Origin: a virus
Length of the DNA: 64,000 bases
IMG/VR virus record: IMGVR_UViG_3300010157_000040
Location: 1 to 64,000 of that record
Reading direction: 5' to 3' (one strand)
Under the pieces are notes generated by a model. That model was not told the DNA's origin and did no database searches. It saw nothing but the letters and a program-made list of their open reading frames with translations. The position numbers and the translations under genes were made by a program. Positions 5,602 through 6,512 of this stretch are shown piece after piece (within the stretch, counting starts at the first letter, position 1; each line of letters opens with the position of its first letter).

Positions 5602-6512
5602 TGAAAGGATGAGTATTGACCTTTCATGTTGTTATTTTTGGAAAATTTCTTCTCCGCATACACACTTATATTTCTACAAGTAAACAACATGCTCAATGAT
5701 TTATAGTATCATCATACTTTTACATATTAGTGCAATAAATTTCCTTTCATACCAACTTCCTTACGGGATTAACAGTATGTCTACTGCTAGTTAAGATATT
5801 AATCAGTCCTTTTACATAAACCTTGCGGGTCTTCTGTATCTACATATTTCAGTAGAATAAGAGCATTTTCACTAATAAGTGCTAGAACATTTTTTGCTTT
5901 TAAGTTTTTAGTTTAAATGCGGTTCAGGAAATAATGTGAAGTAGTTCCAACTTTATATAACATAATACCTTTTGAGTACCTTAGTTATAACTTCACATTG
6001 CTTTAAGCTGCCAAGCTTACTTACTGTTTGATGTAAATACACACTATTTCTAGTAGCATACGGAACATCTTACTAATAACAACTTCCATCTTGGCAAGAT
6101 GTACTATTGTTACCTATTGCACTTTCTATTGACATTTCTGTCTCAACTTCCTACCTGTTAGAAAGTCTACATCTCTATGCATCAACCGTTAGGCCACAAG
6201 CACACCAAAATGTAGGTAGTTACAATACTCTTCTGTAGACAGAATTACTTCTGCGCAATATGTTACCAACATATCACTTTATACCATTACTGGTTTATCC
6301 TATGGTCACGAGAGCTGACCTGTTGTTTCAGTAGTTCCACAAGGAAACTTAACGTATACACCATGAGTATCTAAACTCTGAGGGTAACAACATTGTATAC
6401 TTAATGGTCATTAAGGTATTTAGACCAAAACCTATTGTCTTGTAACTATACTGGACAATCCCACGCCAGCAACTTACTGGATAGTTGTTTCATTATAGTG
6501 TAACAACCCACA
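5602..6512 (-). ncRNA. large structured ncRNA, GOLLD-like (~900 nt)
   Basis: No ORF of 60 aa or more; GC higher than flanks; many hairpins with GNRA tetraloops read on the minus strand (GACA-GAAA-UGUC, CUA-GAAA-UAG, CC-GCAA-GG, CC-GUAA-GG); stems CAUGUUGUU/AACAACAUG and UGAAAGG/CCUUUCA. GOLLD assignment rests on size, phage context and recalled motif resemblance only. Confidence 0.6.

Follow-up and report, generated by a model that had tools for sequence, protein, structure and literature searches.

The locus

The stretch of DNA analysed here, called the window throughout, comprises 64,000 nucleotides, positions 1 to 64,000 of the IMG/VR virus record IMGVR_UViG_3300010157_000040; the source genome is a 108.7-kb virus record. 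Inside a leftward block of small unannotated open reading frames (ORFs) lies a region around positions 5602–6512 which holds a large structured RNA on the minus strand. When this strand is read 5' to 3', a twister-type element precedes the RNA, which consists of two domains, a second twister-type element follows it, and a short ORF comes next. This RNA is a GOLLD, complete but divergent, and does not represent a new class; its flanks, judged from their sequences, are two probable self-cutting ribozymes of the twister type.

A first-pass annotation of the window had described positions 5602–6512 as an ORF-free noncoding RNA of raised GC content, with at least four GNRA-capped hairpins on the minus strand. 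No ORF in this interval exceeds 46 aa (48 aa in the wider interval 5446–7013, both strands included). The GC content is indeed raised in the ORF-free stretch (0.30–0.37, compared to 0.25–0.29 in the flanking small-gene block), the rise being modest. The boundaries also agree with those deduced from conservation, since the profile calculated from 10 homologues gives a conserved block at about 6520–5604.

The four GNRA hairpins are all present on the minus strand: C-GUAA-G (5757–5768), C-GCAA-G (5820–5830), CUA-GAAA-UAG (6042–6053) and GACA-GAAA-UGUC (6131–6142). The same is true of the stems that had been named, UAAGCU/AGCUUA, CAUCUU/AAGAUG, CAGAA/UUCUG, AUAUGUU/AACAUAU and the terminal UGAAAGG/CCUUUCA. 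All five are recovered when RNAalifold is run on the homologues described below, with compensatory changes in most of them. The two flanking twister ribozymes are absent from that earlier reading.

A full-length, divergent GOLLD RNA

GOLLD RNAs are among the largest noncoding RNAs of bacteria and phages, and they form an RNA-only cage which is bigger than the ribosome. The family (Rfam RF02032) was reportedly described by Weinberg et al. in 2009. Like GOLLD, the RNA of the window is phage-encoded, is longer than 800 nt, comes from a lake habitat, and pairs a variable 5' half with a conserved 3' one (about 400 nt).

The 3' domain (5606–5998, minus strand) corresponds to the universally conserved half of GOLLD, which is the part modelled by RF02032. 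In a cmscan search run in E-value mode, this model matches the window with 85.2 bits (E = 4.1e-22) at minus 5998–5606; the match is untruncated and covers model positions 1–416 of 416. The comparison with Rfam covariance models that the first-pass annotation had suggested therefore identifies GOLLD over its full length, at a sub-threshold score. At gathering thresholds, Rfam gives no match across the 64-kb window, and a blastn search with 5400–7050 finds no match among GenBank phages.

Homologues were retrieved from IMG/VR with a degenerate pattern derived from the conserved hairpin, and then with a motif of the 5' domain. This led to 23 loci (designated L and a number below) which are collinear with the whole RNA, 8 of them at 75–90% identity and the others down to about 55%. 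A pattern search from a motif of the 3' end returned the known members again and nothing further. Ten members of this clade score 85–123 bits with RF02032, each covering model positions 1–416, whereas 18 canonical GOLLDs from IMG/VR, used as controls, score 174–327 bits. This difference indicates that the clade is a distinct, divergent GOLLD subfamily, which threshold annotation misses. The gathering of homologues had also been suggested at the outset as a test of covariation, and compensatory changes are found in both domains.

Nineteen homologues were aligned (A3), and the Rfam consensus structure of the 3' domain was transferred to them by means of the cmscan alignment. The 94 mapped pairs are paired in 84.6% of the cells, compared to 36–44% after the partners are slid by 1–3 columns. 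Compensatory double changes occur in 45 of these pairs, and 13 of the 15 helices are at least 73% paired. In a shuffling control of the covariation score of the domains, the observed value was equalled by none of the 500 shuffles.

The structure of the GOLLD env-38 was solved by cryo-EM and shows an RNA-only cage of 14 subunits, in which the conserved 3' region corresponds to residues 421–833 and a linker (497–538) is disordered (Kretsch et al. 2025, PMC12286853). The first hairpin of the 3' domain of the window's RNA bears the loop UCAAAAG, which is also invariant in GOLLD; C29, A30, A31, A32, A33 and G34 are the same in all 19 sequences. The segment GUACUCAAAAGG, which the first-pass annotation noted as resembling GOLLD, is precisely this A-rich loop (Rfam consensus UCAAAAG). 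It would correspond to L14/P14 (bridge B6) of the solved cage, a conserved A-rich loop which forms an intermolecular A-minor bridge (PMC12286853). As in GOLLD, an A/U-rich linker joins this first hairpin to the rest of the 3' domain; it is variable in length and in sequence (A3 columns 71–146) and contains no inserted tRNA. The intermolecular kissing contact L20-J13/15 was sought in the RNA and was not located with confidence.

The 5' domain (5999–6514, minus strand, about 515 nt) was studied in an alignment of 20 homologues (A5). Its first ~115 nt vary in a modular fashion between relatives, and the other ~400 nt are conserved. RNAalifold, applied to the 20 sequences, proposes 88 pairs in this domain, 48 of which are compensatory. 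In a fuller structure of 151 pairs, 93.4% of the cells are paired, compared to 30–42% when the partners are slid by 1–3 columns, and 74 of the pairs show compensatory changes.

The core of this domain (6073–6229, minus strand; covariance model R2) consists of a multi-branch junction and the invariant element "GUUGAG - GAAA-capped hairpin - CAAUAG". A search of 80 canonical GOLLD loci with R2 gives 36 weak matches (11–21 bits), none of which is significant alone. However weak individually, 32 of the 36 are on the GOLLD strand, 451–597 nt before the 3' end of GOLLD, and the corresponding value for the window is 462 nt. Taken together, this agreement in position indicates that the 5' core is homologous to that of canonical GOLLDs, which have a GAAA-capped hairpin element at an equal distance from the 3' end. 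The GAAA element is probably the counterpart of the conserved loop L11a of the solved GOLLD. The other segment noted in the first-pass annotation, AAUAGGUAAC, is found just 3' of "UUGAG - GAAA hairpin - CAAUAG", within the core model that also matches canonical GOLLDs.

Sequence-only profiles of the clade have no match in 87 canonical-GOLLD loci. Since the profiles fail and the covariance models succeed, the relationship between the clade and the canonical GOLLDs is visible to covariance models only. The first-pass annotation had hesitated between a divergent GOLLD and a new class. The alignment of RF02032 from end to end, the covariation in both domains and the position of the R2 matches in canonical loci settle this in favor of a divergent GOLLD, and the proposal of a new class is abandoned.

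Twister-type elements on both sides of the RNA

The twister ribozyme of type P1 (Rfam RF03160) is said to have been described by Roth et al. in 2014. Two elements of this type were delimited on the minus strand with a regular-expression parse and an alignment (A2). The upstream one occupies 6511–6692 (core 6684–6519) and has a P5 insert of about 110 nt; the downstream one occupies 5470–5604 (core 5596–5478), with a P5 insert of about 60 nt. A covariance model built from these elements, R1, gives the upstream copy 82.7 bits (E = 1e-20) and the downstream copy 111 bits (E = 6.5e-29). In the clade loci, R1 matches 23 elements; in the 108.7-kb genome searched as a whole, it matches two and no more, those that bracket the RNA. 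It has no match in the 80 canonical GOLLD loci, a result to be read with the fact that R1 is tuned to this variant and that ordinary twisters could escape it.

The two elements of the window read as type-P1 twisters, with their parts in this order: U|AA, a 4-bp P2, CC, P4 capped by UUCCCAAGG, a variable insert with a 7–10-bp stem at P5, the return strand of P2, and GAGGG. In an alignment of 15 elements, T9, A10, A11, T12, G13 and C17 are invariant, and C-N-CAAG-G (L4) and GAG-N-G are at least 90% conserved. P2, P4, T1, T2 and the inner stem of P5 are 100% paired, and the outer stem of P5 is 89% paired. The sequence of P2 changes in a compensatory manner (CG in 10 elements versus UA in 5); the upstream copy of the window has UGUA/UACA, and the downstream copy UGCA/UGCA. 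Similarly, the middle pair of the pseudoknot T1 switches between CG (11 elements) and AU (3 elements), that is, between CCC/GGG and CAC/GUG. Compensatory changes are also seen in P4 (4 cells per pair) and in P5.

The elements thus resemble type-P1 twisters in their U|AA cleavage motif, 4-bp P2, P4 with the L4 loop UCCCAAG, GAGGG 3' of P2, and pseudoknots T1 (in which CCC/GGG covaries with CAC/GUG) and T2. They differ from them by the insert of 20–110 nt at P5, the absence of P3, a weak or absent P1, "CC" instead of "GCC" after P2, and a flipped T2 partner (GG for GC). The flipped first pair of T2, the missing P3 and the P5 insert explain why the Rfam twister models miss these elements.

The P5 inserts differ greatly between twister copies. 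In the upstream copy, a motif of about 22 nt (UGACCACUUA-G/A-G-U/G-UCUUAA-C/U-AU; window 6565–6650, minus strand) is directly repeated in the insert, its two copies being about 60 nt apart and each containing a small hairpin. The GOLLD 3' tail and the P1 strand of the upstream twister were compared by eye for a possible pairing, which was discarded: it consists of 3 A-U pairs only and is not reproduced in L004.

Surroundings of the RNA in relatives and in canonical GOLLDs

A twister or a pistol ribozyme match is found downstream of the RNA in every clade locus that has at least about 400 nt of 3' flank, the matches in L009 and L028 being weak. An upstream twister is present only in the window, L004, L036 and L044 among the clade loci examined, the downstream ribozyme being the constant feature. 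In L051, a compact type-P1 twister (56.8 bits, E = 1.6e-12) lies directly 3' of the RNA, in the same slot as the downstream element of the window. Pistol ribozymes are found 6 nt after the RNA in L049 (3451–3512, minus strand), about 280 nt after it in L048 (4605–4666, plus strand) and L055 (1979–2040, minus strand), and at a distance of about 390 nt in L022 (1434–1498, plus strand). The pistol matches in relatives score 42–56 bits, above the Rfam cut-off of 34.5.

Tandem twisters follow the RNA in L004 (4763–4844 and 4927–5107), L036 and L024 (8643–8822 and 9029–9162); one twister of the tandem is compact (66-nt core) and the other has a long P5 insert. Weak, compact twister-like elements, which score about 20 bits with R1, follow, at a distance of 165–440 nt, the two GOLLD copies that have diverged most (L028:9580–9644, plus strand, and L009:1320–1384, minus strand). 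In the element of L028, P1, P2, P4 and T1 can be recognized by eye, and T2 is poor. In a related phage, L059:12522–12584 (plus strand) matches the "freshwater-1" RNA motif (RF02979) with 75.4 bits, above the cut-off, near two tRNAs.

The canonical GOLLDs have other neighbors. The Rfam scan of 20 canonical loci, which covers 18 canonical GOLLDs, detects no ribozyme at the gathering threshold. About one third of these 18 have tRNA or tmRNA genes in the flanks that were fetched, in one case 18 nt after the RNA. The tRNAs are either nearby or some hundreds of nt upstream (L134:1391–1463, L128:1249–1320, L067:6216–6287, L076:3043–3133), and tmRNA matches occur near the GOLLDs of L134 and L091. GOLLD is known to occur near tRNAs and in phages (PMC5737381, PMC12286853, PMC6582537, PMC7567579); one such setting is a mycobacterial cluster of 32 tRNAs (PMC6582537).

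Phage lineage

The first-pass annotation placed the RNA in a crAss-like phage, which is borne out at low identity (about 25% for TerL). The best matches of TerL are the crAss-like phages cr130_1 and cr55_1, Flavobacterium FpV4 and Cellulophaga phages (23–25% identity, E down to 2e-39), and the terminase, the portal protein and the major head (capsid) protein of the window match PHROG families. The major capsid proteins of four contigs from which homologues were taken are 77–96% identical to that of the window, and three of these contigs are 94–100% complete genomes of 118–123 kb. The shared capsid and genome size indicate that the homologues tested form one phage lineage. The public runs that contain the stretch are freshwater and lake metagenomes. 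A scan of a genome collection with the 5' motif gave 13 Nocardioides contigs (about 71% GC), which have no homology to either domain; they were rejected as chance matches and provide no clue to the host.

Transcript surroundings and expression

Between the downstream twister and an ORF of 52 aa (5287–5445, minus strand), which matches no family, is an A/U-rich leader some 30 nt long. A similar leader and an ATG are found 3' of the twister in relatives. No terminator-like site is present on the minus strand between 5604 and 5297. Past the RNA, the first site of this kind is an intrinsic-terminator-like hairpin, AGGGGA-GUGA-UCCCCU with a U run after it (5281–5296, minus strand). The absence of a terminator before the 52-aa ORF fits a polycistronic precursor, and this ORF probably shares its transcript with the GOLLD RNA.

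A twin of this hairpin is located at 5038–5053. Both are near-palindromic (AGGGGA-TyAC-TCCCCT), have T/A runs on either side and come after small minus-strand ORFs; they look like bidirectional intrinsic terminators. A similar terminator-like hairpin is found directly upstream of the GOLLD RNA in L024.

Contigs that are 99–100% identical to the window within the RNA are present in four lake metatranscriptome runs (5842–6186 at a depth of 66.6; 5809–6382), and one contig bridges the junction between the upstream twister and the GOLLD RNA (6439–6653). The contigs do not cover the flanking ORFs, contigs being unable to demonstrate an absence.

The region upstream of the first twister (6685–7013) contains a 41-aa ORF (6968–6843, minus strand). 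Relatives carry parts of this region at different places, L004 having all of it; in L016 it lies downstream of the RNA, and in L058 upstream. It was considered as a further ribozyme and has no Rfam match. Farther away in the window, a 163-aa ORF (12181–12672, plus strand) matches the 2OG-Fe(II) oxygenase superfamily PF13532 (AlkB-like, E = 8e-12). The ORF-poor stretches 7284–7662 and 9400–10800 have no Rfam match at gathering thresholds; the latter, in which GC reaches a peak of 0.38 (about 9400–9800), is where the leftward small-gene block and the rightward structural block diverge.

Proposed excision of the RNA

We propose, with a probability of about 0.72, that the locus produces a full-length divergent GOLLD in a freshwater crAss-like phage, that this RNA is excised from a longer transcript by the two flanking type-P1 twisters, and that it probably assembles into a cage. 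Leftward transcription inside the small-gene block would yield a longer precursor that holds the GOLLD RNA. Because a type-P1 twister cleaves close to its 5' end, the upstream copy would stay on the RNA and the downstream copy would leave with the message that follows. The predicted cut of the upstream twister is between U6684 and A6683, which would keep this ribozyme at the 5' end of GOLLD. For the downstream twister, a cut is predicted between U5596 and A5595, which would leave about 10 nt after the last GOLLD helix, and this ribozyme would depart with the small-ORF mRNA. The predicted product, of about 1088 nt, would consist of a twister and the GOLLD 5' and 3' domains, with a 5'-OH and a 2',3'-cyclic phosphate as ends.

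In this phage lineage, a twister or a pistol would fill the slot that tRNA genes hold around many other GOLLDs; at those tRNA-flanked GOLLDs, the ends are presumably set by RNase P and RNase Z. By homology with the env-38 GOLLD, the released RNA would probably form an RNA-only multimeric cage during infection.

Several observations weigh against this proposal. The score of 85.2 bits is below the gathering cut-off of RF02032 (150 bits), which is why ordinary threshold annotation misses the RNA; the clade members L051 and L059 are not reported by RF02032; and helices 7 and 14 of the 3' domain are unsupported as mapped. The loop that corresponds to L21a according to its position in the Rfam model, not according to the solved structure, is AGACAU in the window (5771–5776, A3 columns 246–251) and in L024, with AC in place of the self-pairing GC. 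It is xGCAx in the other 17 homologues, and the Rfam consensus also has a central GC. In this respect the window departs from the solved GOLLD, in which the self-pairing GC or CG of L21a makes the inter-shell kissing contact between the cage halves (PMC12286853).

On the side of the ribozymes, a search of the window and L004 with the Rfam twister models, at E values up to 10, detects neither element of the window, and the compact twister of L051 is also below the RF03160 cut-off (67.2 bits). T2 is paired yet invariant within the clade, and it therefore brings no support from covariation. P1 is paired in 64% of the cells and nearly absent in the upstream copy; this stem is reported to be dispensable for twister cleavage. 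The 64-kb window contains no tRNA, and several relatives have one 2–6 kb off. No promoter was identified at the locus. Lastly, the data from RNA libraries are assembled contigs, which carry no information on strand or ends and in which DNA carry-over is possible.

The twister-like elements might be dead relics, or structural modules such as end-caps or protein-binding sites, in which case the ends of the RNA would come from transcription start and stop or from host RNases. Their weak P1 is compatible with this idea, as are the failure of the Rfam twister models to score them and the departure of the long, variable P5 inserts and of the flipped T2 pair from the Rfam consensus. The contig that crosses the junction between the upstream twister and GOLLD would be expected of an inert element, but it is equally expected of an active twister. 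We nevertheless consider this explanation unlikely. The elements retain U-AA, the L4 motif C-N-CAAG and GAG-N-G, and compensatory changes keep the pseudoknot T1 and the stem P2, which suggests that selection acts on the active fold. Moreover, relatives have a pistol (55–56 bits, for a cut-off of 34.5) or a compact twister in the same slot, and the presence of different self-cleaving classes in one slot argues that cleavage itself is the selected function.

It is slightly less probable still that the pair of twisters is a natural excision-and-circularisation cassette, with a host RtcB-type ligase, or reverse cleavage by the twister, closing a circular twister-GOLLD RNA of about 1.1 kb. The products of twister cleavage (5'-OH and 2',3'-cyclic phosphate) have exactly the chemistry of RtcB substrates, so the ends would be suitable for ligation, and the only two twister copies of the genome bracket the RNA. 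The system called Tornado, reportedly engineered by Litke and Jaffrey in 2019 for the expression of circular RNAs, has a P3-type twister upstream, loses both ribozymes and relies on a ligation stem. The locus resembles it in that the RNA is bracketed by two twisters and would have the same ends, but here both twisters are of type P1, the upstream one would be retained, and no end-pairing stem is evident. In addition, the upstream twister is limited to 4 of the clade loci examined, no back-joint is found among the metatranscriptome contigs (though contigs are a poor test), and the solved GOLLD cage was made from linear RNA (PMC12286853). It is similarly doubtful that a closed circular giant RNA would build or seed the GOLLD cage as a natural counterpart of Tornado.

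Finally, the whole structured region could be a cis-acting leader that regulates or stabilises the 52-aa ORF, which we regard as very improbable. The interval between the RNA and the ORF lacks a terminator, and a conserved leader with an ATG follows the downstream twister in several relatives. However, the RNA is homologous to GOLLD, which acts in trans and accumulates independently (PMC12286853, PMC7567579); cleavage by the twister would separate the RNA from the ORF; and the sequence downstream of the RNA differs in relatives. Excision of a divergent GOLLD by the flanking twisters remains the explanation that we favor.

Relation to known systems and significance

The nearest precedent for a ribozyme-flanked noncoding RNA in phages is that of the theta ribozymes. 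These HDV-like (hepatitis delta virus-like) ribozymes are found beside suppressor tRNA genes in gut phages and were tested biochemically (Kienbeck et al. 2024, PMC10879173). In both cases, a small self-cleaving ribozyme lies beside a structured noncoding RNA in a tailed phage, and a role in the processing of its ends is proposed. The differences are in the class of the ribozyme and in its cargo, HDV-like ribozymes and suppressor tRNAs on the one hand, and on the other a 900-nt RNA next to predicted twisters.

The tRNA-punctuated GOLLD loci (PMC6582537; L134, L128 and L067) are comparable in another way, since GOLLD is located there between processable RNAs of a longer transcription unit. The ends would be produced by RNase P and RNase Z at the tRNAs in those loci, and by self-cleavage of the RNA in the window, both mechanisms being proposals. 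Unlike these GOLLDs, the copy of the window has no adjacent tRNA; it is accompanied by predicted ribozymes of the self-cleaving type and belongs to a crAss-like phage lineage. No report of GOLLD in crAss-like phages, or flanked by self-cleaving ribozymes, was found in the searchable literature.

The locus would provide a new processing context for a strongly supported divergent GOLLD. With it, the GOLLD family reaches a lineage of crAss-like phages from lakes, whose genomes are about 110–120 kb and in which the Rfam threshold misses the family. The retention of the 5' core element, even in this distant branch, means that both halves of GOLLD are ancient.

We know of no function assigned to GOLLD and, to our knowledge, few natural roles have been established for twister and pistol ribozymes. 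If the proposed excision is correct, these ribozymes would have a concrete job, that of trimming a giant structured RNA from a phage transcript in the stead of tRNA genes. The exact ends of the RNA, or a chemistry that makes these ends resistant to nucleases, may matter for the accumulation of GOLLD or for the assembly of its cage.

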